DNA of 35,908 nucleotides from Folioceros fuciformis (lineage: Eukaryota): the NCBI GenBank assembly GCA_049999805.1, contig JBNGIO010004596.1, positions 1 through 35,908 on the forward strand, read 5' to 3'. The translations under genes were made by a program, and so were the position numbers. Below are positions 12,641-34,600 of the stretch, piece after piece (the stretch's first letter is position 1; every line of letters begins with the position of its first letter). Under the pieces are notes generated by a model that saw only the letters and a list, made by a program, of their open reading frames with translations, had not been told where the DNA came from and did not search any database.

Positions 12641-12875
12641 AGCAGATCTATGTAATTCGCTGAACATCCTGAATGCTAGGTCAGAATTGATCAGCATCTG
12701 AAATTTAATAGAATGGTACCAGACAGCCAAGAGTCTTTTGAGTAAAACCCACAAGAGGTCTTTAGTTCTGAAGGCCTGCTTCTTGAGTCCTGCCGGACAG
12801 GAAAGACTGCAAGAACGCTTGCAACGCGTGAAAAGGAATACTCAGCTGAAGCAGCCCTTGGATTCTCTGCCCTCT

Positions 12876-14000
12876 TCAAATTTCCACAGTGCAGGAAGAA
12901 TGGGTAAGGCCATTCTGAAACGGCTCCCTGTCCAAAGTGACCCATTCACCCACCTCACCCACTCCAAAGTCCCCACCGCCAGCCTTAAGAGGCCTGTAGA
13001 GGAGCCCGGATCCGCGCCCCTCAACAGACCCCGTCAAGAAGATGGAGCCCTGTGCGGCGGTGGCGTGAGGACTGAACCACCCGCCCTCGGGCACTCCGTC
13101 AATTTGTGCCCACGAATTGGAGGCTGGTTGGTATCTGAACATCTTCTGCAGGTAGAAGGAGTAGAGGCAGCTGTTTGCAACAACCAAGGCGCAAGGGCAC
13201 ACTCCTATAGGCCAGAAATCCTCGATCCTCTCCCAGGAAGAGGTAGCAGGATCATAGACATCCGCGCTCCTCACAAACCGGCCCTGAGAATCCGTGGGAT
13301 ACCCACTCACAACGTGAAACCTGGAGTTCAGGAGATATCCGGAGCACTCGTCCCGACCCTGGCTAAGGGGCGGGATCATCTCCCATCGGTTGCTCGCAAT
13401 ACTGAACACTTCAGCGGAAGTGAGCGCATTTTTGCTGTCGTCGTGTCCTCCTGCAACGTAAATCTTGCCGCCCCCCGCTGCACACGCGAAGAAGGAGCGC
13501 ACGTTGAGCATGTCTGCACACCTCGTCCAAGAGCGCGTGGAGAAATTGAAAGCGTAGACGGTCTTCATCGCCTCCCATGTGGTGGGATTCCACCCTCCGA
13601 GCACAAACAAGGTCCCCTCGTGACCCACCGCCTGGCAGAAGAGCGGCATCCCCTGCGGGAGCTCGGGAATCAGCGGCAACTTATCCCAGCTCCCGGTTCT
13701 CACATCATACACCGCGACTGCATACACTGGAGCCGCCAAAAGCTTCCCCACGACCGGCGCAGGCAAAGCCTGGACGAGGCACACGGCCTGGCTCGTCGTC
13801 CCGGCCCTTCTCCGCTGCTCGTAGAAGTCGTGCCCGCTCACCAGCCGCTCCCACCTCCGGCACACCCCCAGCAGCTGCGGATGACACTTGTAGGAAACCC
13901 GCAGCAGGCACTCCATCGCAATGTCCTCCGGCAGACCCGGTATGAGTTCCCCATCCGCGGCTCCGCCCTGCGCATGGGCCAAAGCCACGGCCGTAGCCAT
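12876..14000 (-). CDS. F-box/kelch-repeat protein of the KFB/KISS ME DEADLY-like group, intronless, about 374 aa
   Basis: F-box LIPGLPEDIAMECLLRV...VCRRW. Kelch motifs LFCQ, VLGGWNPTTW, RSFFAC, VAGGHDDSKNALTSAE, RDEC, SADVYDP. First in-frame ATG is at 14000; the frame stays open to 14069. Confidence 0.92.
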   Translation of the reverse strand: MATAVALAHAQGGAADGELIPGLPEDIAMECLLRVSYKCHPQLLGVCRRWERLVSGHDFYEQRRRAGTTSQAVCLVQALPAPVVGKLLAAPVYAVAVYDVRTGSWDKLPLIPELPQGMPLFCQAVGHEGTLFVLGGWNPTTWEAMKTVYAFNFSTRSWTRCADMLNVRSFFACAAGGGKIYVAGGHDDSKNALTSAEVFSIASNRWEMIPPLSQGRDECSGYLLNSRFHVVSGYPTDSQGRFVRSADVYDPATSSWERIEDFWPIGVCPCALVVANSCLYSFYLQKMFRYQPASNSWAQIDGVPEGGWFSPHATAAQGSIFLTGSVEGRGSGLLYRPLKAGGGDFGVGEVGEWVTLDREPFQNGLTHSSCTVEI

Positions 14001-15810
14001 GGCCACCGCACAAGCTCCCCTTCCCTCCTCCGATCCCACCAGGTCGATACCGAAACCGATACCGATCAATTAGCCAGGGCGTCGCCTGCATGCAAGTCCG
14101 CACTCACTCTGGCTGAACCCGAACCCACAATAATTGGAAGAGACCCGAAACCAGGTGGAGAATCCCACACTCGTTTCAACGACAACCCACAACAACAATT
14201 GAGAAGGAGACCCACATCTAACAGCAGCAAGAGATGCAGCAGATTGCAGAATCAGACATGCCCGCAAAGCGCGTGTGGGCGGACTTTATATGCATGTCAC
14301 CGCAAGCCATAAAGCAGGACAACGCAATGGAGTGGCAGAGGGGCATCAGCCACGAGGAAACCCGCGCACTCCTTCTCTCTGCGGTCCCACGTCTGAGAGC
14401 GCGCAGTATTGGATGGGGCCCAAAGCATGCCCGCAGACGACTGCTGCGACACGCACAGTTTGCCGTTTGAAGACATACTGGGTACCGTGGTCCCCAGGCG
14501 GCGCTGCCGACACGTTTGCAGGCCTCTGAAGTGGAAATAGCAAGACTGGGTGCTATTGGGTTGCTGAACAAGCAGCCAAAGCGCGAACCAGTGTACGTAC
14601 ATTCTACTGGTACTGCTGTCCAACTTGCTATGGCCCGCCCATTCCACCGCACCCCACTCCACCCACCTTCTGCGCCACTCGCTCCAGCTACTCCAATGCA
14701 TTGTAGCCCCGAAAGCAAAGCTTCCCAACCCGGTCACCTGCTGCCACACGCTTTTCCGTTTTCGTTTTCTGACCAGGGATGACATGTTGGCGGTTGCTTG
14801 GCCCCCCTCCACCACTGTACGTCTGCTCGCAAGTGTCACCTCATTGGTGTAGGAGGAGAGGATAAGCCTTCTGCCTTCTGCCGTCTGCCTCCACCTCCTG
14901 GCCTGAGCCCACACGACAGCATTTTGCCGCGCCATCCACTGCGTGGGAGACTGCCTCCGCTTTTCCATACCCTTTATTCAAACAACGAACTGGACTTGAG
15001 GTATCTATCCTGTGACAGCCAATCGGATTCTGGCACTTGCTCTTCCATGGGATATGGTGACAGCCGCCATTTGTCCGTATCCCGTTGCCTCCAAGATTTT
15101 TTTTTTTTTATCTGCCGAGATATTTAGGAGGAACAGTTGCTAGAGCCCTGGCCCGCCTCCCTGACTGCTTCCGGTGTCGGATAAGGTCGCATTTATCCAG
15201 CTGCAAGGCTCCTGCCTACCCTTAGAAGGTGGGCTCATCGGCTCATTTGCGTCGATGGCGCGGGACACTGGAGATATTTACAGTATGTACTTAGCTTCTT
15301 CTTCATTTGGCTCCATCATACATGATGGGACCAAAATCTTCTGACTACATGCTGTACCTACCGCGGTTTACTTCCGGCCTCCCAGCGACCAATACTTCCT
15401 GAAACCAACACTGCTATGCAGTGACCAGACTTGGAGGACTGACACATCCCAGACAAGCTTTTTTTTGGTCTTATCGCTGCTTGGATGGGCGATTATCTTC
15501 TCCCTCCCACCTTGATCTATTACCTTGCAAAATCCATAAAGGATACCTATGAGGTACTTGGGATAGTTAGTGATTTGAACTTCAATTAGTACTTAAATTA
15601 GCAGGAAGACACGAAAACTCTTAAGTTTATCAAACTAAATGACATCTAGTAAAATCCTTATCATTTTTAACTAATAAATATAAAAGAGGAGAAGCTTGCA
15701 ATTGGGGACATAATGCCTTTCTAGGTGAAGCATGTGAAAAAGTATATGGCCACATCTCTTCTTCTTGTTTAAACATCAAACAAAGCAGTTGTTGTAATAC
15801 TCTCTACTTT

Positions 15811-22680: not shown

Positions 22681-23534
22681 TGCTCAAATATGTGATTAAA
22701 GCAAAGATGCTCTTTAAACGTTCTTAATGGACTCTAATGAAATTCTTCTTCTCCTTCCTATTCTATTCTAAGTAGTCTCTAAATAGTGTTTAGGGAGAGG
22801 AGTTTTTGTTTTTTTTTTCTTGTGCTTGGTTGGCATGATGAAAACTTAAAAGAAGGTAGGTAAGGAAGCCGGCATTCAAGGTCTTTGTATCTTTAAAAGT
22901 TGAGTCATGTGTGGGCANNNNNNNNNNNNNNNNNNNNNNNNNNNNNNNNNNNNNNNNNNNNNNNNNNNNNNNNNNNNNNNNNNNNNNNNNNNNNNNNNNN
23001 NNNNNNNNNNNNNNNNNTGTGTGGGCACATGTTTCCATAAACACTAGAAAATGACTTTCATTAAAACTAGAGCTATTAAAAAAGCCGATTAAACAACAAC
23101 TCCTACATGTGAGGGTGAGTTTAAACCCTTTACCTAAAAACTAATTTAGTGAAGTTTAAATCAAATATATTTATATTATTATATATTTAAATAACTATTT
23201 TTTTATGTAAGTAGAGAAAAAGACTTCTAAGTAGCAAAGTCATTATTTAAAGTACCCAAAGTTTTAAGAAAAATCATTTTTTTCAATTATAAAATAGACG
23301 AGGTCTCATCTCTTACTTTATAGTGAAGTTTTGAATTGTATGTGAGTATTTTAAAAAATTGAAGCAAAAATTAATATCTGTTAAATAATCATTCTTGTTC
23401 ATTTTATATAAATTGTAATTTGTCCTTGTCCATAATTCCTAGCTCTGAGGACTGGGGGATTTTGAATTGGTTCACTCTGGTGCAGGAATCTGTCGGATCA
23501 ACTAACCGGGCAAGAGAGACAGAAAATCCTGCGG

Positions 23535-26500
23535 ATGCAGCTTTCCTGCATACGTAGTGTGGTTTCAGGGAAGCAAGCTTGGGGGCTCGATGGCGGACGG
23601 GCATTCGAAGAATTGCATTTCAAGAACGCACGTTGGCCATACAACAAGGGGGCAGATGATCAGCTTGGATTTGGGAGGGGGCCATCTGCCCACAAGCTTG
23701 ATGGATGCGAACCATCTCCAGCTTGTGGTGGAAGGACGCGCACAAGTAATGGCGTTGCGCAGAAGGAGAGTCAGGATGTTCTGTGGCAGCTGTTCTTTCA
23801 GGATCCTGCAGAGTGGTGGGACAACAGGGTGGAGAAGCGGAGTTCTCGCCATCCCGACTTCAGGCACAAGACGTGCGACCAGGCTCTGTGGTTGAACGGC
23901 TATGGGAAGCCTGTTTGGGTGGATTCGGAGCTGGCCAGGTGGGATGCAGAGAAGGAGTCTGCGATTGCAGGAAATGGGGAAACTAGAATTATGGTGGATG
24001 GGGGCTTCAGGAATGGTTGTGAGCTGAGAGACGCTGTTGAAGGGTTGGAGTTTATGGTTAAGGAAGGGCGTAGTGTTGGAAGGGGTCTTGTCTATCGTGT
24101 GCTGAAGAAGTGTATGGCACAGAAGGATTTGGGGCTTGGGAGACGTGTTCATGCTCTTTCTCGCAGAGCTGGGTACGAAGGGGATGTGTTTCTGGCCAAT
24201 CACATCATTGGCATGTACGCTGTTCATGGGAAGTTGGAGAAAGCGTTGCAGGTGTTCGTTGATTTGACTGCCCCAGATGTTTATGTGTGGGGGACGATTA
24301 TTTTGGCGCATGCTCGACATGGTAAGTCCAGGGAAGCTATTGCACTGTATCGACAAATGCGGGAGTCTGGTGTGACGGGAGACAACCATGTGTTTGTTGC
24401 AGTTCTTAAGGCCTGTGCTGCTGCAGGGGATCTGGTCTCGGGGAAGGAGGTTCATTGTGATATTCTGGAGAGTGCTGTTGCAGCCGATGTCTTCGTTGAT
24501 AGCAGCCTTGTGACCATGTATGCCAAGTGCGGAAGTTTGGAGGAAGCTCGAAAAGTGTTTGACGCATTGCCCACCAGATCTGTGGTGACGTGGAATGCTA
24601 TGATAGCTGGATATGCTCAGAATGGGCTCGGTCAGCAGGCCCTCGATCTATATGAGATTATGCAGCAAGAGGGATTGACTCCAGCCGATCACGTGACGTT
24701 TGTGTGCCTGCTGAAAGCATGTGCTAGTGTTGCAGCGTTGCGTCAGGGTAAGCAGCTCCATGCACTCATCTGTGAAAGAGGTCTTGAGGCTGATGTGTCC
24801 GTAGGCAGCAGCTTGCTGGACATGTATGCGAAATGCAAGAGCTTAGAAGATGCTCGCACCGTGTTTGACAGCTTGCCGAGTAGAAATGTGGTAACCTGGA
24901 ATGCCATGATGGCAGGGTATACTCAGCATGGACTTGGTGAAGAAGCCCTGGCTCTGTATGCAAGTATGCCACGGGAAGCCAAGTCTGCAGCTGATGTTGT
25001 CACGTTTGCATGCCTCCTGAAGGCATGCGCTCGTGTTGGAGCTCTTCATTACGGGAAGGAGCTTCATGAACAGATGAAAGAAAGGGGGTTGGAAACTAGT
25101 TTGCTACTTGGAAATTGCCTGGTGGACATGTATGCAAAATGCGGGAGCTTGGATGATGCTCGTGGAGTGTTCGACACGTTGCAAACAAAAGATGTGGTGT
25201 CATGGACTGTTATGATTGCAGGATATTCTCACCGAGGGAAGGGACATGAAGCTCTGGCTCTCTACGAGAACATGCTAAAGGAGACTATCACTCCAGCGGA
25301 TCATGTCACATTTGTCTGTCTCCTTCAAGCATGTGCCAGCATCAAAGCGCTGTCTCAGGGAAAGCAGCTTCATCAACAGATCCGTGAAAGATGCCTAGAA
25401 ACGGATCTTGCAATAGGGAGCAGCCTGGTGGACATGTACGCAAAATGTGGAAGCCTGGACGCTGCTCGCAGAGTGTTTGATTTGCTCCCCACAAGGAATG
25501 CGGTTACATGCACCGCCATGATTGCTGGATATGCGCAGCAGGGCCTGGGGTCAGAAGCTTTGGCTCTGGCTGCCAGGATGCAACAGGAGGGCGTGATGCT
25601 AGACAGTCATATCGCGTTTTTGTGTCTCCTTCAAGCATGTGCCAGCACAGGAGGTCTGGAGCAAGGGAAGCAAGTTCATGCTCAAATCCAGCAAAAAGGG
25701 CTCCAAGCTGACGTAGTTATTGGCAACTGCCTGATGGATATGTACTTAAAGTGTGGCAGTGTGGAGGATGCCCAGAGTGTGTTTGACAGTTTAACTGCAA
25801 AAGATGTGGTAACATGGACTACCATGATTGCAGGATACACTCAGCTTGGTCTTGGTCGACAAGCCCTGGCTCTCTATGCGAGTATGCAGCGGGAGGCCAT
25901 GACTCCAGCTGACCGTGTTACATATGTGTGTCTCCTTCAAACATGTGCCTCCGTGGGCGCTTTGCAGCAGGGGAAGCAGCTCTATGCACAGATTCGTGCA
26001 AGTGGCCTGGACGCTGATGCATCTGTTGGTAGTAGCCTGGTCGACATGTACGCAAAATGTGGAAGTTTGGCAGAGGCTCGGGAAGTGTTTGACAGATTAG
26101 CCACAAGAGATGTAGTGACATGGAACTCCCTGCTTAATGGCTACGCTGAGCATGGCGATGGTGAACTGGCCATGCAATTCTTCACGGAAATGCGTCAGCA
26201 AGGTGTTAGACCGGATGGTGCTACCTTCATTTGCCTTCTGGTTGCTTGTAGTCATGCGGGTTTGGTGGACCGGGGCCAGGAGTTTTTCAGGATGATGGTT
26301 GAGGACTATGGCATTCTGCCCACGGAGTGCCACTATAATTGCATGGTCGATCTTCTTGGACGGTCAGGTCATTTGGATGAGGCTGAAGATCTGCTGCAAT
26401 CTAGCTGTTCTGAGAATGATGCTGTGGGCTGGACCTCGTTGTTAAGTGCGTGCAGAAGCCACGCGGACATGGAGCGTGGAAGGCGATGTTTTGACCGTCT

Positions 26501-27026
26501 TGTGCAACTGGAACCCAATAATGCCAGCTCCTATGTGCTCCTAGCAAACATCTACGCAGAGGCAGGGAGGTGGGACGAGGTAGACAGGATAGAAAGTTTG
26601 AGAAAACTAGCAAGTGCTGTAAAGAAACCTGCAAAGGCGTGCATCGAAGTGAAGTCTGAGGTACACGAGTTCCGAGTGGGAGACGAGAGGGCTGACATAG
26701 CCTCAAAGCTCAAAAGCATGAATAGTAGGTTGAAAGAAGAAGGTGGCCATGTCCCGCAAACGGGCTTGGTCCTGAAGGCCGTATCTGAACAGGGGAAGGA
26801 AGATGCCCTGTGTGGACATGCTGAGAAATTGGCGCTGGCGTATGGTCTCGTGAACACTCCTGACGGCACAACCTTGATAGTCACGAAGAATCTTCGCATG
26901 TGCAATGACTGTCACAGCAGCACCAAGATTATGTCACGACTTGAAAAGCGAGAAATCGTTGTTAGAGACGCACACCGAGTACACCGTTTCTTGGACGGCA
27001 TTTGTTCCTGTGGCGATCGGCATTGA
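23535..27026 (+). CDS. PLS-class PPR protein with E1/E2 and a DYW:KP ('DRH') deaminase-like domain plus an N-terminal PDF motif; candidate organellar U-to-C RNA editing factor, 1163 aa
   Basis: Intronless ORF. About 23 motifs (L-S, 6x P-L-S, P2-L2-S2), then E1 and E2. KKPAKACIEV replaces the PG box. HAEKLA and CNDCH zinc ligands. Terminal CSCGDRH. Confidence 0.95.
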   Translation: MQLSCIRSVVSGKQAWGLDGGRAFEELHFKNARWPYNKGADDQLGFGRGPSAHKLDGCEPSPACGGRTRTSNGVAQKESQDVLWQLFFQDPAEWWDNRVEKRSSRHPDFRHKTCDQALWLNGYGKPVWVDSELARWDAEKESAIAGNGETRIMVDGGFRNGCELRDAVEGLEFMVKEGRSVGRGLVYRVLKKCMAQKDLGLGRRVHALSRRAGYEGDVFLANHIIGMYAVHGKLEKALQVFVDLTAPDVYVWGTIILAHARHGKSREAIALYRQMRESGVTGDNHVFVAVLKACAAAGDLVSGKEVHCDILESAVAADVFVDSSLVTMYAKCGSLEEARKVFDALPTRSVVTWNAMIAGYAQNGLGQQALDLYEIMQQEGLTPADHVTFVCLLKACASVAALRQGKQLHALICERGLEADVSVGSSLLDMYAKCKSLEDARTVFDSLPSRNVVTWNAMMAGYTQHGLGEEALALYASMPREAKSAADVVTFACLLKACARVGALHYGKELHEQMKERGLETSLLLGNCLVDMYAKCGSLDDARGVFDTLQTKDVVSWTVMIAGYSHRGKGHEALALYENMLKETITPADHVTFVCLLQACASIKALSQGKQLHQQIRERCLETDLAIGSSLVDMYAKCGSLDAARRVFDLLPTRNAVTCTAMIAGYAQQGLGSEALALAARMQQEGVMLDSHIAFLCLLQACASTGGLEQGKQVHAQIQQKGLQADVVIGNCLMDMYLKCGSVEDAQSVFDSLTAKDVVTWTTMIAGYTQLGLGRQALALYASMQREAMTPADRVTYVCLLQTCASVGALQQGKQLYAQIRASGLDADASVGSSLVDMYAKCGSLAEAREVFDRLATRDVVTWNSLLNGYAEHGDGELAMQFFTEMRQQGVRPDGATFICLLVACSHAGLVDRGQEFFRMMVEDYGILPTECHYNCMVDLLGRSGHLDEAEDLLQSSCSENDAVGWTSLLSACRSHADMERGRRCFDRLVQLEPNNASSYVLLANIYAEAGRWDEVDRIESLRKLASAVKKPAKACIEVKSEVHEFRVGDERADIASKLKSMNSRLKEEGGHVPQTGLVLKAVSEQGKEDALCGHAEKLALAYGLVNTPDGTTLIVTKNLRMCNDCHSSTKIMSRLEKREIVVRDAHRVHRFLDGICSCGDRH

Positions 27027-27269
27027 CGAACTGTTGTTGGGGCCTTGGTGGACGGCAACACCACGTAGGGCACTGCTGAGGGCCCCCATGCCGGTGATGC
27101 TTTTAAGAATTAACCTATCAGAAAACTGACCGCCATGTCTGCACGCATTGCAAAACTGCGGACACAGCATCCCGAAATGTTGTCGTGATGTTTGATCTAG
27201 GCCAGGTACTTAATTGCCCAAATACCGAGCTACAAGGCACACCTCAGTAACGAGTTATGGTCGAAGCAA

Positions 27270-28445
27270 ATATTATAATTCTATGCTCTCCGTTTCTTAT
27301 TTTTAATTTAGAGATATTACTATAAAAATAGAGTTAGACACTTCTTCATAAGATTCTGGAATTAAGTATCCTACGCTTAGATTGGTACTTAGATGCTGAG
27401 CCATATGCCACACTAAAGTAAGGAGTCATAAGCAACTTTAGGTTGAAGCGAAGGAAGATTATAATTATATGTTCTCAGATATTACAACAAAAATAGGGTT
27501 GGACACGTTTCATAAGACTTTGGAATTAAGTATCCTACGCTTAGATTGGTACTTAGATGAGATGCCTAAAGGGAAGGATAGCCTTGGAGAAAATAACTAG
27601 GTATACCATGGTATACAAGGTGCATAAAATCTAAAGATGGATTTCTACGGCACTTGGTACTTCATAATTTTTGTCATTGGTACCTAACAATTTTTTTTCA
27701 TAGTGCCAAGTGCTATGATGGAAATCCATCATTAGGATTGTTAAATACCAAGTGCTATGATGGAAATCTAGCATTAGGATAGAATTCTTCTTCATCTACT
27801 CTTAAAAATAGGAGAATAACCTAATGAAAGGCACGGAAACCAAGAATTCTTCTCCATCTACTTCTAAAAGAAAGAGGAATAGGAACAACATAGTAAATGA
27901 AGTGGAAACTAAGAATTCTTCTCTTCTACCCTAAAAGAGTTCTTCTTCGTCTACTCTTAAAAGAAAGAGGAACAACCTAGTGAATTGTGTGAGACCAAGA
28001 ATTTTTCTCTTCTACCCATAAAAGAAAGAGGAACAACCTAAAAAAAAAGCATAGAAACCGATGGACTAGTACTCGCAATCATGTCTCTCAAAATAACGAA
28101 CCACTCAAAGAACTTCATGATGAACAATGTGAAAGAGTGTACCTAAAAGGTGCTTCTTCTCCAGCGCTTATTGGCATCTCATATGCCACATTGGCCCATG
28201 CTCTCTATAGAGCCATGAATATCTTGTGCCAAAAGAAAGTAACAATACAAGATAGCGGAAAACTAGTTGTGGTAGCAAAACCTTAGGCTTACCTACTAAG
28301 GCTCTACCTTTTAGCATCCAAACTTATCTCACTATCATTGAGACATTAAGTTTCATCGCATAGAGAGCGGTGGAGCTCTTTTTCATCGCATAGAGAGCGG
28401 TGGAGCTCTTGACATGAGAGCGGTGGAGCTCTTGACATGACAGAT
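27270..28445. repeat. AT-rich patchwork of local repeats, probably a decayed non-autonomous element
   Basis: An ~85-bp duplication (27311-27395 / 27477-27560), an imperfect inverted repeat at 27627-27740, degenerate 55-70-bp tandem units at 27780-28040, and GAGAGCGGTGGAGCTCTT x3 at 28351-28440. Confidence 0.6.
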
Positions 28446-28672: not shown

Positions 28673-31600
28673 TTTTTTTTTTTCGCGAAGAAAAGGATTC
28701 TGATTAATCAATGGAAGATGTCTTCCACTTACAAGACATAGGGGGGGGGAACCCCAGCTAACGTATGTACAATGCATGAGCACCATTAGAGGGGGGAAGG
28801 CTGACCTCGTGTCCAGGCCTCAAAGCATGACACTCAGAGAGCCCACCCCCATTCAATGGTGTCAGTAACTGCTAAGACCCTTAGACTTAAACCTCAAAGT
28901 CGAACAAAGATTATAAGGGCTCACCTTCCCCAGGGACACGTGTGATTCCACTGCTCATCATTTCCAAGATCAAGAAAGCCCGCTTGCCTCCATTCTTTCC
29001 GCTTGAACTGTTTCTGACGAGACTGCCTCAAAGCTTATGCTGCAATCAGTAAGTGCTCCCATATGTGCCATAGTAGAGCCTTAGTTGAGGCTGACTCTTG
29101 TCCTCCATAGACTTCTAAGGACCAGTTAACCCAAAGAGAGAAAAGGCACGAAGACCACAGCAAGCCCCACCATTGTGCCTGGATGAGAGGCTTGCCCGAG
29201 ACTGCATCAACCCAAATAAGGCTGATTGTTTCTTGATCCTGAGATTAGTACCAGGAAAAATCTTTTGCAACCACCTATCCACCTCCCTCCAGATTTCTTG
29301 AGCAAAGCTACAATGAAAGAACATGTGTTGACTTTTGTTTGGGGCACTAGAGGTGCAAAGTCGACACAACTCCTCTCTCGTCGCAACTAACAACCCATCC
29401 CAACGGTCCGCATTAGGTATACATGCTTGAAAAAAACACCACACCGTAGTCCTCAGCTTGGGAGGGATTCTTGAAGACTTCCATAGTAGCTTGATAGCTT
29501 CCCTTTGTCGCCGTGCAGATAGTTGCAGCCTGGGAGCCATTGTGTTAGGATGTGTTGTGAAACAAACACATTGGTTGTCGTTGATTGCTTTTATGCGCTC
29601 GAACCATCCAGAGGAAAATGTTTGCCGTAGGGAAGTTGAAGAAAGATCTATGGCAAGCCTCCCTGCAACCTGGACGCCTTGGCCATTTGTATAGGTGTGG
29701 TCTTAAGATCAAACCCAGTTTTCCACCAGCCAAAATCAGCACTGTACCATAGACTTGTCCGAGGGTTGTGGCCCATTAGGTCGTTCGTCTTGAGTGCACC
29801 ATCGCCCTGCTTGAGCAGACTTAGAGAGGACCGTGATAGCCCGCAACTCCCCTCTTCGGATTCCTCCATCTTCAATGCCCTGATCTTCCAAAAGGCCTTC
29901 CAGCGACATGACCTTGAACGTCTGTAACTGCTCTTGAACCGTCGTACTAGAGAGCCAAACAGCCATGTCTAACTCTACGGCATCCTCTTGTTCTTCCTCC
30001 TTAGAGTCCACACCCTGACTGTCCATGGAGTATGCATACCACCCTCAGCGCCCGAGCTAGGAGGTTGCCGTAAAAACTATTGCACCTTATCCTCTAACCC
30101 CTCTCGCAACCATGTAAAAATGAGTTTGACGTGTCGAGCCACTAATCCTAACTCCCCCTTAACCTCGTCCATCTCCTTCCAGTGAGACTCTGATCTACTC
30201 CATAGATGCCCCAGCTGGAAAACTCCTTTTTGGCACGCCAACCCGAAGATTTGAGACCGAAATACCCATAACCTCGAGAATCCTTGCAAAGGAATACCAA
30301 GGACATTATCAATATGCGAAGGGTTACAAGGAATAATGTACTATTTTACCTCTAAGTAACTGCTCCAGATGAACTTGAAGAGTGGGGAGCACTCTGTAGT
30401 ATCAAGTAACGGCTTGTCAGCAAGAATGTTGTCTATAGATCTCCCTCCCCTAGGGACAGCTTGGGTGCAATCCAGATGTTGCGTTAGCCAACTGTTCCAA
30501 GGGTAGTAGGCCGGATCAGCTGCACCGACAACCCATTGAGCATGCAAAACTTTCATCTTAGCAACTGGATCCACTACACCTAGACCCCCCAAACTACGAG
30601 CTTGGATGATGTGGTGCCAAGCCACTTTAGAGCACCCGGCCATGCTATCCCCCAAACGTTTCCATAAAAATGAGGTCAGCACTTGTTGCAACTGCTTCAC
30701 CTCTATCTTGGAGGGGGGCCACAAGAACAAGTAGTACCATAATGAGGCTATAAGCATATGGTTAATCACCACCAGCCTCCCTGCCAGGTTAAGCTCCAAC
30801 AGCTGCAAGCTCGCCGCTTTTCGAAGTAATCTGAGGCACACATACTTCCCTACCTCACCATTCTCATCCCCCTCCTGAAAGGGAAGCCCTAAGTACTTGT
30901 GGGTGGAACCCAAAGTCACACGCCTAATGTGGCTAATGCATTGGGGAAGCTCGCCTTCCATGTGCAGACACATCATGCGAGTCTTGCTCCAATTAACCAG
31001 GCAACTCGATAACTCCCCAAATACCTTAACCTGCTCGAGCAAAGCCTTCAATGAAGCCTCCTCAGCCCAGGAAAAGAGGAGAGTATCATCTGCAAACGCC
31101 AATACCCTTAGCTGCGTTCCGTCTGGATTCCGGATACCTTCCACTGCTGGGTCTTGCTCAACTGCTCGTAGAAAGAAGTCAGTAACAATAATAAACAAGA
31201 ACGGAGCAAGGGGGCACCCCTGACGTACCAAACGACGAATGCCAAAACGCTCCATAAAAGACCCATTGACAGCCACCTTGGCACCTGCATCTTCACACAA
31301 AATGGCTATCCATCTATAGAAATTATTCCCGAAACCAAAACTACGCAGGCATCTCCACAAGAAATGCCACTCAACGGAGTTGTATGCCTTGTAGAAGTTA
31401 AGGGAAATGAAGACGGCAGCTTTCTTCTGTACCTTTATATTGTACTTACTTTCTCGTAGGAGAAGGAGGTTGTTCAAGATGCACCTATTTTGAATGAACC
31501 CTTGCTGCTCCTTCTCTATCCAGTCATCCATAAAGGTTTTGATGCGATTGGCCAAAACTTTAGCAATTACCTTGTAAGTGGTAGTGAGCAAGGTGATTGG

Positions 31601-34600
31601 GCGCCAGTTGGATATAGACAGACTGGCGTCCTGCTTAGGGAGCAAGGAGATGACCCCCATATTGAACCAACTTCCCATGCTACCATCTTCCCAGATCATG
31701 TTCACCACCTCCATGAATAAAGGCTCCATAAACTCCCACCCCCAAAGCAGGATTCATGTTCATGGTGGGATACCTTCATGACCTGGGGATTTATCTCTTG
31801 GCATCCCCTTGAGAGCCAGAAACACCTCCTCTGCAGTTATCGGCTTATCCAGGGCCCTGCGTTGGTCCTCGGAGACTTACCCGAGAGTGAACCATAGGTA
31901 GCTGACCAAAGCTGCTCCCATCCAGCTATCTTCCCCACAAAGAATAAGGTAATGAGTTTTAAGCCTTCTAGCGAGTCTTGCACCACGCCTTGCGCATCGG
32001 AAAGGGCGGGAATTCGCGTCCTACGCCAGTTAGAAGCCACCTTATCGAAAAAGAATTTAGAAGGGCCGTCTCCTTCCCTTACCCACTTAACCTTGGCCCA
32101 CTTAAACCAGCCTCTAGCTCTGTCCTCTTCCAACTTGGCCAAAGCGCACTGCACCTCAATTTTCCTGGCTTCTTCTTCATTTGTGAAGTCCCGGTCTTCA
32201 CAAGCTCTTTGAAACCAGCAGAGCTCCTCCCTCAAGAAACATTCTTGTTGGTGTTGCTCTTTTGCCCGTTGAACCCCTCGCCTCCTCAAATACCTAGTCG
32301 CTTTAGTGTTAGCACACATCAATTTAAGCACCGCATGTTCTGGTCCCTGTTCAACCCCCTGCTAGATGTTCTTGACATCATCAAATACACCTTTTACCTT
32401 CAATAAGGATGTGTTCATCCGAAAATTCTGCATATGCCTCCTTTGATGACAAGAGTTTGGAGCAAGACTCAAATGCAAATTGATTGCGTGGTGGTCGGAT
32501 AGGATCGTACTAGCGAGAATGCTGTACGACTGCGCAAAGGATAGCCATCCTGAAGGAACATAGAACCTGTCCAATCTGCGCGCTCCCAAACTCTGGTGTT
32601 GTTGGTTGGACCAACTGAACATCAAGGATTGTGGTTGGCGGTGCGTTGGGAGGGCCAACCACGGGTCCTGCACTACCAAGACCGTATCTCTCAACTCCTG
32701 CCAAGACATAGGCACCGCCCGGACATCAATTGGGCTATCTCCTCTAATGTCTTCCCGTCTTTCCACAAAGTTGAAGTCACCAGTCAACATCCACAGGATC
32801 TGATCATCCAACTGATCTCCCAGTCTACGCCAGAGACTGCTCCTGTCAAAGGCGGCGTTGGGTGCATAGATGTTGCATATTCTGATGGGGCCTTGTGGTG
32901 TCTGCAACACCAACCACACAAACCTTCCACCCTCATCCTGCCCCGATTCTAGGATGTTGTGAGCTTGTTCTGGGTGAACAGTAATGGACACCCCTCCATG
33001 GGACGCAGACACATGCTGTGTCGACCATTCTCCCCCTCTTGCGTCCTCTGCTCTAGCTGCCACCCATTCTGTTCTACCCGGGAGGAAGATTTTCTTCACT
33101 TTCTGAATATGCTCCATTGAGAGCTTATGTTCCTGCAAGCACACAACATCCCACGTAACCTCCTCGTCAAACAGATGCTTCAATCTTCTACACTTCAAAG
33201 CCGTCTTCGACCATCCTCCCAAACCTCTAATGTTCCAAGAAATGATCCGCAAGTGCATCCCCCTTTCATAGTCTTTCAGCGTGTCAATACCCATTTAACG
33301 GGGTTTGCTTGAAAGATTCTGGATAGCAGATGGCTTGGTCATCCTAGCCCAAGACCTAAACTTGGATCGCTCCAGCTGATCATTAGTTTTTGGCTCACGG
33401 GACCCTCTTTGAAGTCTTTCAGACTTGCGAATGGCTAGTGCACCTTTCCTGTCATAGCCTCCTGTGAGTCTAACAATTTCACCCATCGACGCCTCTAGAG
33501 TCCCCATCATGTCCTTCGTCCAAGGCACGTCCAAAGTCCACCTCCACTCGGGGATAAGCAGCATGGTTGGCCCATAAACATGTTTTAGACAGACTTCAGC
33601 TTAATACTACCCCTCCTTCTGGTAGACACCACTGAAAAACTCTACATCCTTACCGTCTTGACTCATTAGGACCCCTCTGGATGACAAGATGGCAAAAATC
33701 CTCTCTTGTCCTGCATGTAGCTGGTGTAATGTAATGATAAGTGGTAGCTGTTCCCCCCCACTTCCTATCATAACCAGAAAGGAGCAGAAGTCCTAAAACT
33801 TCCTCGTAACCTTTAGGATGACTGAGTAATGTCTGTTTTTCCTCCTAGATATTCCTTCCGACTCCCTGAATTCCTGGCCACTAAGCCTGCTCTTTTCCTC
33901 CTGCGCAGGGAGAGGAAGCCCATATTGTACCTCCTTGACCTGCGCAAGATCCCTCTCCCCAGACCTTAGCGGAGATGTACATCCTTCATCCCCAAAAAAA
34001 ACAGCTTGTACCTCATGCCAGTCCGTTTCATTATCCTCTTCGTCCTCAGCACAAGGAGTGGAGAAAAAGTCGTCCTCCGACGCACATACCGCATTCTCTC
34101 TCATGATGGGACTGTCAAAGGCAAGCATGGATTTATCCATACACGATGCACTAGATTCATCCTCTCTAGAACCCCTTCTCACTTCACTCCTGTGCAGACC
34201 ACATATTGCCAATGGAGCATTCGCATCACCAGACACAATCTTCCGGTGCGTTCTAATTTCCCCCCTCGGCCCATCCAATACTTTGATCTTTTTTCCATCC
34301 GGTGAGGTTATATCCAGGGCCAAGCGCTGAACCACTCTATGCAATGCCTTCCTTGCCTTGGCCACTACAATCTGGTCTTGACGCTTATGCCCTGAAACCG
34401 GATCCTCCGAGAACCGAGTCCTCTTCCCTACAGCTACCTCTTTACTCCTGTATTCAACTCCTTTCAAACCAAAAACTGCCGTTGAGTTCCAAACAGGAGC
34501 AGGCTGGGCAGAGCCTATAGCTGATTCTGGAGTTCCAGCAAGACCAATATCCCCCCCTTGATCCGGAGCCTGTTGAACTGGTGATGAGACTTTGCTTAGC

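Follow-up and report, generated by a model that had tools for sequence, protein, structure and literature searches.

An intact nuclear gene in the window, a stretch of 35,908 nucleotides from Folioceros fuciformis, encodes a PLS-class PPR organelle protein that ends in a DYW:KP domain, and what is, by its sequence, a true OSB-type PDF motif lies between the leader and the first PPR of this protein. The gene belongs to a large, old PDF-PLS-PPR subfamily of liverwort, moss, lycophyte and fern sequences.

Translation of the window gave a single uninterrupted, intron-less ORF on the forward strand (23535-27026; 1163 aa plus stop), with the reading frame open already from 23466, upstream of the ATG at 23535. 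This complete ORF consists of leader, PDF motif, PLS-PPR array, E1/E2 and DYW:KP domain, all on the forward strand. The leader (residues 1-70; 23535..23744) is a putative organelle-targeting peptide with a poorly conserved sequence, a pLDDT below 50 and no Pfam match. The PDF motif, located by HMM, BLASTP, phmmer and AF2, spans residues 77-138 (23763..23948) in the extent given by a profile built from OSB motifs only, and its core of 51 residues (residues 83-133, LWQLFF...VDSEL) is the exact translation of 23781-23935. The PLS-type PPR array occupies residues about 146-961 (23970..26417; Pfam PPR and PPR_2, 102-aa register, AF2), the E1/E2 extension motifs residues 962-1030 (26418..26624; Pfam E_motif, sequence register), and the DYW:KP deaminase-like domain residues 1031-1163 (26625..27023; Pfam DYW_deaminase, sequence criteria). 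The first-pass annotation had placed the motif in the same uninterrupted frame as the PPR array and the DYW:KP domain, between the leader and the first PPR, and both placements held, with PPR-like helices beginning from about residues 148-161.

The PDF-PPR fusion is not a gene-model artefact, because the ORF is single, the same layout occurs in a Pteridium transcriptome, contig X2 spans the fusion, and there is no OB-fold upstream of the motif. The Pfam scan returned nothing in residues 1-188, the region over which it is silent because Pfam has no PDF model. Contig X2 covered 23483-24632 with 0 differences and joined the ATG, the PDF motif and the first PPRs; X2, X6 and X11 are labelled 'RNA?' by guess, and none of the listed runs is on record as RNA. 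X2 gave no cover outside about 23407-27627, where the DNA run X1 continued. Contigs from three studies started at 23483 (X2), 23516 (X6) and 23524 (X11), which at best suggests, weakly, that transcription begins shortly before the ATG. Contigs X6 (23516-24610) and X11 (23524-24070), from two other organisms, had about 92-93% identity; their sole insertion, 9 nt long and in frame, lies after 24020. Summed depth over 23809-24009 was above that of the single matching contig and gives no copy number; paralogues or other PDF genes may be the source of the higher depth.

The segment had been annotated at first pass as an OSB-type PDF motif, and a scan with a PDF HMM had been proposed as its check. 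The profile used comprised 115 motifs from 61 OSB-type (non-PPR) proteins (63 model positions). It matched the window motif over model positions 2-62 of 63 (71.2 bits, E 9.2e-22), a result that is partly circular because the source proteins had been retrieved with the window motif itself, and the 23535-27026 ORF was its sole match among the 690 window ORFs of at least 30 aa. BLASTP against the Amborella 'protein OSB3, chloroplastic/mitochondrial' served as the independent check and gave four HSPs, one per OSB3 motif (40-50% identity; E 3e-16 to 8e-13). A phmmer search of 1.84 billion representatives with a 65-aa query gave 658 matches at E ≤ 1e-3, 183 of them at E ≤ 1e-10. Sixteen columns were at least 80% conserved in both 115 OSB-linked and 160 PPR-linked motifs, and residues conserved in OSB motifs are equally conserved in PPR-linked ones. 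The window motif agreed at 15 of the 16 columns, the exception being a K to R change in PDF[K/R]HK. The profile match, the OSB3 alignments and the conserved columns bear out the annotated identity.

The PPR families were matched with an E of about 1e-108 (Pfam), and the array consists of eight 102-aa P-L-S triplets (24 PPRs), the first degenerate and the last P2-L2-S2. The 5th/last residue pairs of its P and S motifs read, from N to C, GD, SS, ND, SN, ND, ND, TD, SN, TS, ND, TD, SD and ND. Pfam also matched E_motif at residues 976-1037 (E 5.2e-17) and DYW_deaminase at residues 1071-1161 (E 1.3e-34), but Eplus_motif was absent by Pfam, unlike in the PG relatives P0144 and P0145. With P-L-S triplets followed by E1/E2, the protein has the make-up of a candidate PLS-class PPR editing factor. 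In the available text of PMC11845758, DYW:KP domains are defined by a Lys-Pro pair in place of the PG pair at the domain start, Ala or Cys in place of Ser after the zinc-binding His (HxE), a C-terminal triplet not conserved as DYW, a length of 132-133 aa and a conserved Lys88. The window protein has KPAKA at residue 1031, HAE (HAEKLA), CNDCH and a C-terminal DRH; its domain is 133 aa long from the K of KPAKA to the protein end, and the Lys of TKNLR stands at domain position 88 (89 if counted one residue earlier). The DYW:KP assignment made at first pass agrees with these features. The type is linked to U-to-C editing, which would be a candidate activity only; according to the available text of the same source, what natural KP proteins catalyse has yet to be established.

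The PDF motif modelled alone was predicted by AF2 as a helix, a small sheet and a helix (pLDDT 85.5). In an AF2 model of 300 aa, pLDDT was below 50 for residues 1-70, 78-94 for the PDF motif, 57-61 for hinge residues 141-160 and 87-98 for the PPRs, with PPR helix pairs predicted from residue 161 onward. The last helix of the motif (residues 127-146) extended to the PPR helices in the model. These models predict the motif, with good confidence, as an independently folded mini-domain behind a disordered leader of 70 residues. With the motif model, Foldseek found nothing in the PDB at E ≤ 0.001 (best E 4.9); the highest Z from VIA-align wide, 5.1 (9ltp_C), falls within the background range and yields no fold assignment; and ESM Atlas gave no usable match. 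A PDB sequence search with residues 1-188 returned nothing at E ≤ 0.001; its best match was a designer PPR (E 0.16, residues 119-178). No solved structural relative of the motif was found by these searches, and hence none to back a nucleic-acid-binding fold; fold novelty does not follow from this.

Among the matches listed by the PDF profile search, 119 of 120 were PDF-PPR proteins (68 from Diphasiastrum complanatum, 27 from Sphagnum spp., 6 from Calypogeia fissa, 4 from Adiantum and 14 further records), and the OSB-only HMM confirmed the motif in all 120. These listed proteins carried one PDF copy in 86 cases, two in 26 and three in 7. The first PDF started at a median residue of 49 (IQR 31-98), and every PDF was N-terminal of the first PPR match in 118 of the 119, with a median gap of 15 aa. 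The window protein fits this layout, its PDF motif ending at residues 133-138 shortly before the PPR-like helices. PDF-PPR proteins also made up 13 of the best 150 of the 658 phmmer matches, and the Pteridium transcriptome ORFs P0232, P0090, P0147, P0120 and P0106 had the same layout. No named seed-plant PPR protein was among the matches listed by the profile search. Word-index searches with the single motif, at near and longer lengths, gave no match; the alignment query alone gave matches. A motif tree (310 motif rows, 69 columns, 165 of 305 branches open) was poorly resolved, and on it the PPR label changed 12 times against a shuffled mean of 17.7, which gave no demonstration that the fusion arose only once.

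The KP box was found in none of the 47 DYW-bearing relatives among the matches listed, of which 36 had HSE and 43 the DYW ending; where classifiable they were of the PG type. Canonical PG/HSE/DYW domains occurred in PDF-PPR proteins of Sphagnum and Calypogeia, and the window protein was the sole KP-type member among the matches listed. The PDF module is independent of catalytic type, because PG-type relatives carry it too, and the suggested link of the motif to U-to-C chemistry found no support among the matches listed. The premise that a targeting peptide is normally all that precedes the repeats of PLS-DYW proteins also fails outside seed plants, given the 119 listed PDF-PPR proteins. The earlier interpretation was thus right only in part, since the fusion also occurs elsewhere and is not confined to the KP type.

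In the usual view, a PLS-PPR editing factor consists of a targeting peptide, an array that reads RNA and a deaminase. Searches of the main texts of accessible papers found no description of the PDF-PPR architecture, in line with the annotation that it was undescribed, and the literature they found on PDF motifs covered OSB proteins and no PPR proteins. Neither 'OSB' nor 'single-stranded' is present in the available text of a 2026 kingdom-wide survey, and domain-fusion surveys are blind to the motif because Pfam holds no model of it. Heterologous assays routinely remove everything upstream of the first PPR, according to the available text of PMC10482289. Should dozens of such factors in each lycophyte, Sphagnum, liverwort and fern genome bear a conserved OSB-type ssDNA-binding motif, the editosome would have a functional component that has escaped notice. 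The known range of the PDF motif is broadened beyond OSBs, and the finding offers a direct, cheap handle on a possible physical coupling of organelle RNA editing to the nucleoid and on how editing factors work in lineages without MORF partners.

By a modest balance of judgement, the PDF motif would most likely serve as an accessory module, either for binding single-stranded nucleic acid or for tethering the factor to the nucleoid. The available texts of PMC6963530, PMC4166229 and PMC6451138 report that PDF motifs of OSB1 and OSB2 bind ssDNA. The motif would be retained on the mature protein and act biochemically as it does in OSBs, contacting single-stranded nucleic acid with its Trp/Phe/Arg/Lys face. 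In an RNA-bound PPR array the N-terminus lies toward the 5' side (PMC10482289, available text), so that 24 repeats would put the module at least about 28 nt upstream of the edited base. It might there give a sequence-independent grip on RNA 5' of the PPR footprint. Alternatively, it might hold the factor on nucleoid ssDNA, such as transcription bubbles, R-loops or replication intermediates, where nascent transcripts would be met early. The version with an RNA clamp is weakened because OSB1 and OSB2 are reported, in the available text of PMC4166229, to bind ssDNA in preference to RNA.

A structural or protein-protein module, which would cap the PPR solenoid at its N-terminal end, oligomerise, or dock onto OSB, SSB or other nucleoid proteins without itself touching nucleic acid, is an unlikely explanation with several observations on its side. 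In 118 of the 119 listed relatives a gap of just about 15 residues separates the motif from the first PPR, the predicted last PDF helix reaches the PPR helices, and OSB2 is reported as a tetramer (PMC6963530, available text). However, according to the available text of that review, the PDF motif of OSB1 alone suffices to bind ssDNA. The conserved columns are Trp, Phe, Arg and Lys, residues that typically stack on bases and contact phosphates, and the lower-confidence hinge parts the motif from the array, both of which argue against a purely structural part.

A role in import or sorting, in which the working enzyme would lack the motif because it is cleaved together with the presequence or serves merely to direct sub-organellar sorting, is quite improbable. 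The motif does lie near the N-terminus, behind a leader of just about 70-80 residues, but targeting peptides evolve fast, and the 16 columns conserved at 80% or more are shared across liverwort, moss, lycophyte and fern PPRs. The same columns are held in OSBs, where the motif is C-terminal, up to three copies occur in tandem, and in the predicted models the motif folds confidently whereas the leader does not.

An adaptation specific to the KP type, by which U-to-C editing would be tied to the displaced strand of the DNA or the DYW:KP domain would be led to ssDNA to modify its bases, is very hard to reconcile with the listed relatives, none of whose 47 DYW domains is KP, and with the PG/HSE/DYW domains that accompany the module in Sphagnum and Calypogeia. 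The KP type of the window protein speaks for it, as does the ssDNA binding by OSB PDF motifs reported in PMC6963530, PMC4166229 and PMC6451138, but the PPR array, being sequence-specific, suggests that the target is RNA, as in other editing factors. DNA editing is the least likely among the functional ideas. A decaying, functionless relic of a PDF-PPR ancestor is hardly credible, as nothing specific favours it beyond the K to R change, the sole departure from consensus, against 15 of 16 conserved columns in an intact frame, a 71-bit profile score, and the in-frame 9-nt insertion as the only one in the X6 and X11 contigs.

The accessory-module reading can be extended, tentatively and with considerable doubt, to a helper that editing factors would themselves carry in plants apparently without MORF-type partners. 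The module would couple editing to transcription through nucleoid ssDNA, or clamp RNA 5' of the PPR footprint, within an ancient, large PDF-PPR clade lost by seed plants. If true, such a helper could explain the poor heterologous performance of natural factors assayed without their N-termini.

Membership of the window protein in the OSB family was considered and rejected, as it has no OB-fold and the motif lies at residues 83-133 of 1163; the 82 residues upstream of the motif core had no Pfam match and no PDB sequence match and were predicted to be disordered. OSBs and the window protein are both plant organelle proteins and share the PDF motif of about 50 aa with its W..F..P..WWD.R..K.....PDF.HK....LW.....P.WV columns. 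OSBs have a central OB-fold/SSB-like domain and C-terminal PDF motifs, whereas the window protein has no OB-fold and an N-terminal PDF motif, with 24 PPRs and a deaminase-like domain downstream of it.

Public PDF-PLS-PPR proteins, annotated merely as 'hypothetical' or 'pentatricopeptide repeat', include Diphasiastrum KAJ7558666.1 (P0144), Sphagnum P0145 and P0122, Pteridium P0232 and Adiantum P0051. They share with the window protein the order leader-PDF(1-3)-PLS-PPR-(E)-(DYW) and the short gap between PDF and PPR, but the 47 listed with a DYW domain have no KP box, whereas the window protein is KP. PLS-class PPR-DYW:KP proteins are the candidate U-to-C factors of hornworts, lycophytes and ferns, with the synthetic KP2, KP3 and KP6. 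They have in common with the window protein the PLS triplets, E1/E2, the 133-aa domain, the KP pair, HAE, Lys88, CxxCH and a non-DYW C-terminus. Published PPR-DYW:KP proteins are described, in the available texts, with only a signal peptide upstream of the array, whereas the window protein adds a PDF module predicted to be folded.

The 51 residues quoted in the first-pass annotation were exactly the translation of window positions 23781-23935 (+), and formed the PDF core (residues 83-133) of a single uninterrupted ORF of 1163 aa (23535-27026), the same ORF that encoded the PPR array, as had been claimed. The reading frame was open from 23466, with the first ATG at 23535. Pfam assigned the protein to PPR families (E about 1e-108), the E motif (residues 976-1037) and DYW_deaminase (residues 1071-1161; E 1.3e-34), and gave no match in residues 1-188.

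Because Pfam has no PDF model, the identity of the motif was tested in three ways (phmmer, BLASTP and an HMM). With a 65-aa query (window 23760-23954) against 1.84 billion representatives, phmmer returned 658 matches with E ≤ 1e-3, of which 183 reached E ≤ 1e-10 and 18 reached E ≤ 1e-30. Most of the 150 matches listed were 200-560 aa long with 1-5 motif copies in the C-terminal half; one (P0013) was an Amborella record named 'protein OSB3, chloroplastic/mitochondrial'. In BLASTP, the window motif aligned with each of the four motifs of this OSB3 in a separate HSP (40-50% identity; E 3e-16 to 8e-13). An HMM built only from OSB motifs, the check proposed by the first-pass annotation (115 motifs of 61 OSB-type proteins: non-PPR, 280-560 aa, first motif past residue 150), matched a single ORF among the 690 in the window that reach 30 aa, the PDF-PPR ORF (71.2 bits; E 9.2e-22; model positions 2-62 of 63). 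The HMM training proteins had themselves been fetched with the window motif, so the independent test was BLASTP against P0013. Sixteen columns held the same residue in at least 80% of both 115 OSB-linked and 160 PPR-linked motifs, and the window motif kept 15 of them (exception: R for K in PDF[K/R]HK). The HSPs, the HMM score and the conserved columns upheld the proposed close match to the OSB motif, which reviews describe as the ssDNA-binding element of OSBs (PMC6963530; PMC4166229; PMC6451138).

PPR anchors recurred every 102 aa. Eight P-L-S triplets, of which the first was degenerate and the last P2-L2-S2, occupied roughly residues 146-961 and were followed by E1/E2. The DYW domain began with KPAKA at residue 1031, was 133 aa long, carried HAE, CNDCH and Lys at domain position 88, and ended in DRH. 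PMC11845758 places DYW:KP domains in hornworts, lycophytes and ferns, which limits where the window is likely to come from, and defines them by a KP pair replacing the PG pair, a His followed by Ala or Cys, a C-terminal triplet that varies, a length of 132-133 aa and Lys88; the window protein had every one of these features, in agreement with its first assignment to the KP type.

The DNA around the gene was plant nuclear. The gene region was flanked by copia-type retrotransposon pieces (gag, integrase, RVT_2; 6287-9649, -) and by a LINE-like element (RVT_1 plus an endonuclease/exonuclease/phosphatase ORF; 30344-33294, -). The window also held an ORF with a DUF1685 domain (1731-2627, +; E 3.8e-16) and an F-box/Kelch plant gene (397-aa ORF, 12879-14069, -; F-box E 4.8e-6, Kelch repeats E 1.3e-30). 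A 536-aa ORF on the opposite strand to the latter (12702-14309) had no Pfam match and looks like its antisense shadow. A contig of sequencing run X2 spanned 23483-24632 with zero differences and joined the ATG, the PDF motif and the first PPRs. Contigs from two other organisms covered 23516-24610 (run X6; 77 of 1104 letters different) and 23524-24070 (run X11; 46 of 547 different), each with an in-frame 9-nt insertion after 24020. Contig starts of the three runs, whose RNA label is a guess, clustered at 23483-23524, and a DNA contig continued upstream; at most, this hints weakly that transcription begins shortly ahead of the ATG.

PPR repeats followed an N-terminal PDF motif in 13 of the 150 phmmer matches listed, and Pfam confirmed PPR in 7 of the 10 long matches submitted. 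Named examples came from Diphasiastrum complanatum (P0144, P0151), Sphagnum (P0145, and P0122, which stands for a 39-member cluster) and the ferns Pteridium aquilinum (P0090) and Adiantum (P0051). When longer proteins alone were searched with a profile of 15 short PDF sequences (A2), 393 of 7999 scored candidates had E ≤ 1e-3. The best 120 of these 393 comprised 68 from D. complanatum (66 different locus tags), 27 from Sphagnum spp., 6 from the leafy liverwort Calypogeia fissa, 4 from Adiantum capillus-veneris, 14 without organism name and 1 OSB3 (Microthlaspi). The OSB-only HMM found the PDF motif in all 120, as one copy in 86 proteins, two in 26, three in 7 and five in the OSB3, and 119 of the 120 were PPR proteins. 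Every PDF motif preceded the first PPR match in 118 of these 119 (exception: P0186), at a median gap of 15 aa (range 3-152). Among the PDF-PPR proteins listed, the median start of the first PDF motif was residue 49. No named seed-plant PPR protein was among the matches listed from either search. Five Pteridium members were transcriptome ORFs, so that in a fern the layout is carried by single transcripts.

Right behind the motif, a linker (..PGT[VI]Q....F.WN..) was conserved in moss and lycophyte proteins (P0144, P0145, P0122, P0084, P0083, P0150) and absent from the fern members and the window protein, which suggests two sub-architectures.

AlphaFold2 modelled residues 71-147 (34-sequence alignment A1) as a helix, a small sheet and a second helix (mean pLDDT 85.5). 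In a 300-residue model (A3), pLDDT was below 50 for residues 1-70, 78-94 for the motif blocks, 57-61 at residues 141-160 and 87-98 for the PPR helices; this regional contrast points to a motif that folds as a module of its own, attached by a short hinge and preceded by a disordered leader. Foldseek against the PDB gave nothing at E ≤ 0.001, and the highest Z among the 48,161 chains compared by VIA-align was 5.1, inside the tool's described background.

Numbering in PPR arrays runs backwards from S2-1, which is aligned with position -4 on the 5' side of the edited base (PMC10482289), so repeats nearer the N-terminus lie further 5'. An array of 24 repeats would put the PDF module at about -28 and beyond. 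OSB-linked and PPR-linked motifs retained a common set of aromatic and basic columns, and on the simplest reading the module would keep the OSB-like activity, single-stranded nucleic acid binding. It could add a non-specific RNA grip 5' of the PPR footprint, or tether the protein to single-stranded DNA of the nucleoid; the preference of OSB1 and OSB2 for ssDNA over RNA, reported in PMC4166229, counts against the RNA grip. Nucleic acid binding in one of these two forms is somewhat probable. A protein-protein or capping role for a folded module set directly ahead of the repeats is unlikely beside the shared aromatic and basic columns. That the motif acts as a sorting signal and is cleaved is improbable for a predicted folded module behind its own leader. 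With its columns so retained, the motif is very improbably a relic.

A KP-specific or DNA-editing role is equally remote, the KPAxA box occurring in none of the 47 DYW-bearing relatives examined (45 from the best 120 of 393, plus P0144 and P0145). Their visible boxes were PGCSWIE or PGRTWIE, 36 of the 47 had HSE (the other 11 did not match the HxE pattern used), and 43 ended in DYW. The window protein was the only KP member among the PDF-PPR relatives examined, and is the first KP-type example among the proteins examined here. The first-pass annotation of a PDF motif in a PPR-DYW:KP ORF was borne out, its interpretation in part: the fusion is not unique, and among the proteins examined it was not specific to the KP type.

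In the main texts searched, no paper linking the PDF motif or OSBs to PPR or DYW proteins was found, and the text of a kingdom-wide survey, from 2026, of domain fusions in editing factors had 0 occurrences of 'OSB' or 'single-stranded'; the view that the PDF-PPR-DYW:KP architecture is undescribed agreed with this. PDF-PPR sequences were public, annotated merely as hypothetical or PPR proteins, and constitute a known editing-factor class with a widespread accessory module, apparently overlooked.

Other PDF contexts were also seen. The phmmer match P0052 (1526 aa) had three PDF motifs (185-394) before a kinesin motor domain (458-765; E 1.8e-86); either the motif has a further setting outside OSBs here, or the gene model is fused. 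Five PDF motifs were present in P0005 (521 aa), from a MAG of the green alga Sanguina aurantia. This fits the range given for the motif in PMC4166229, which extends to green algae. P0003 (Kingdonia uniflora, 1160 aa), with no Pfam family whatever, and P0004 and P0009-P0011 were made of 8-12 tandem PDF motifs, far above the 1-5 copies described for OSBs.
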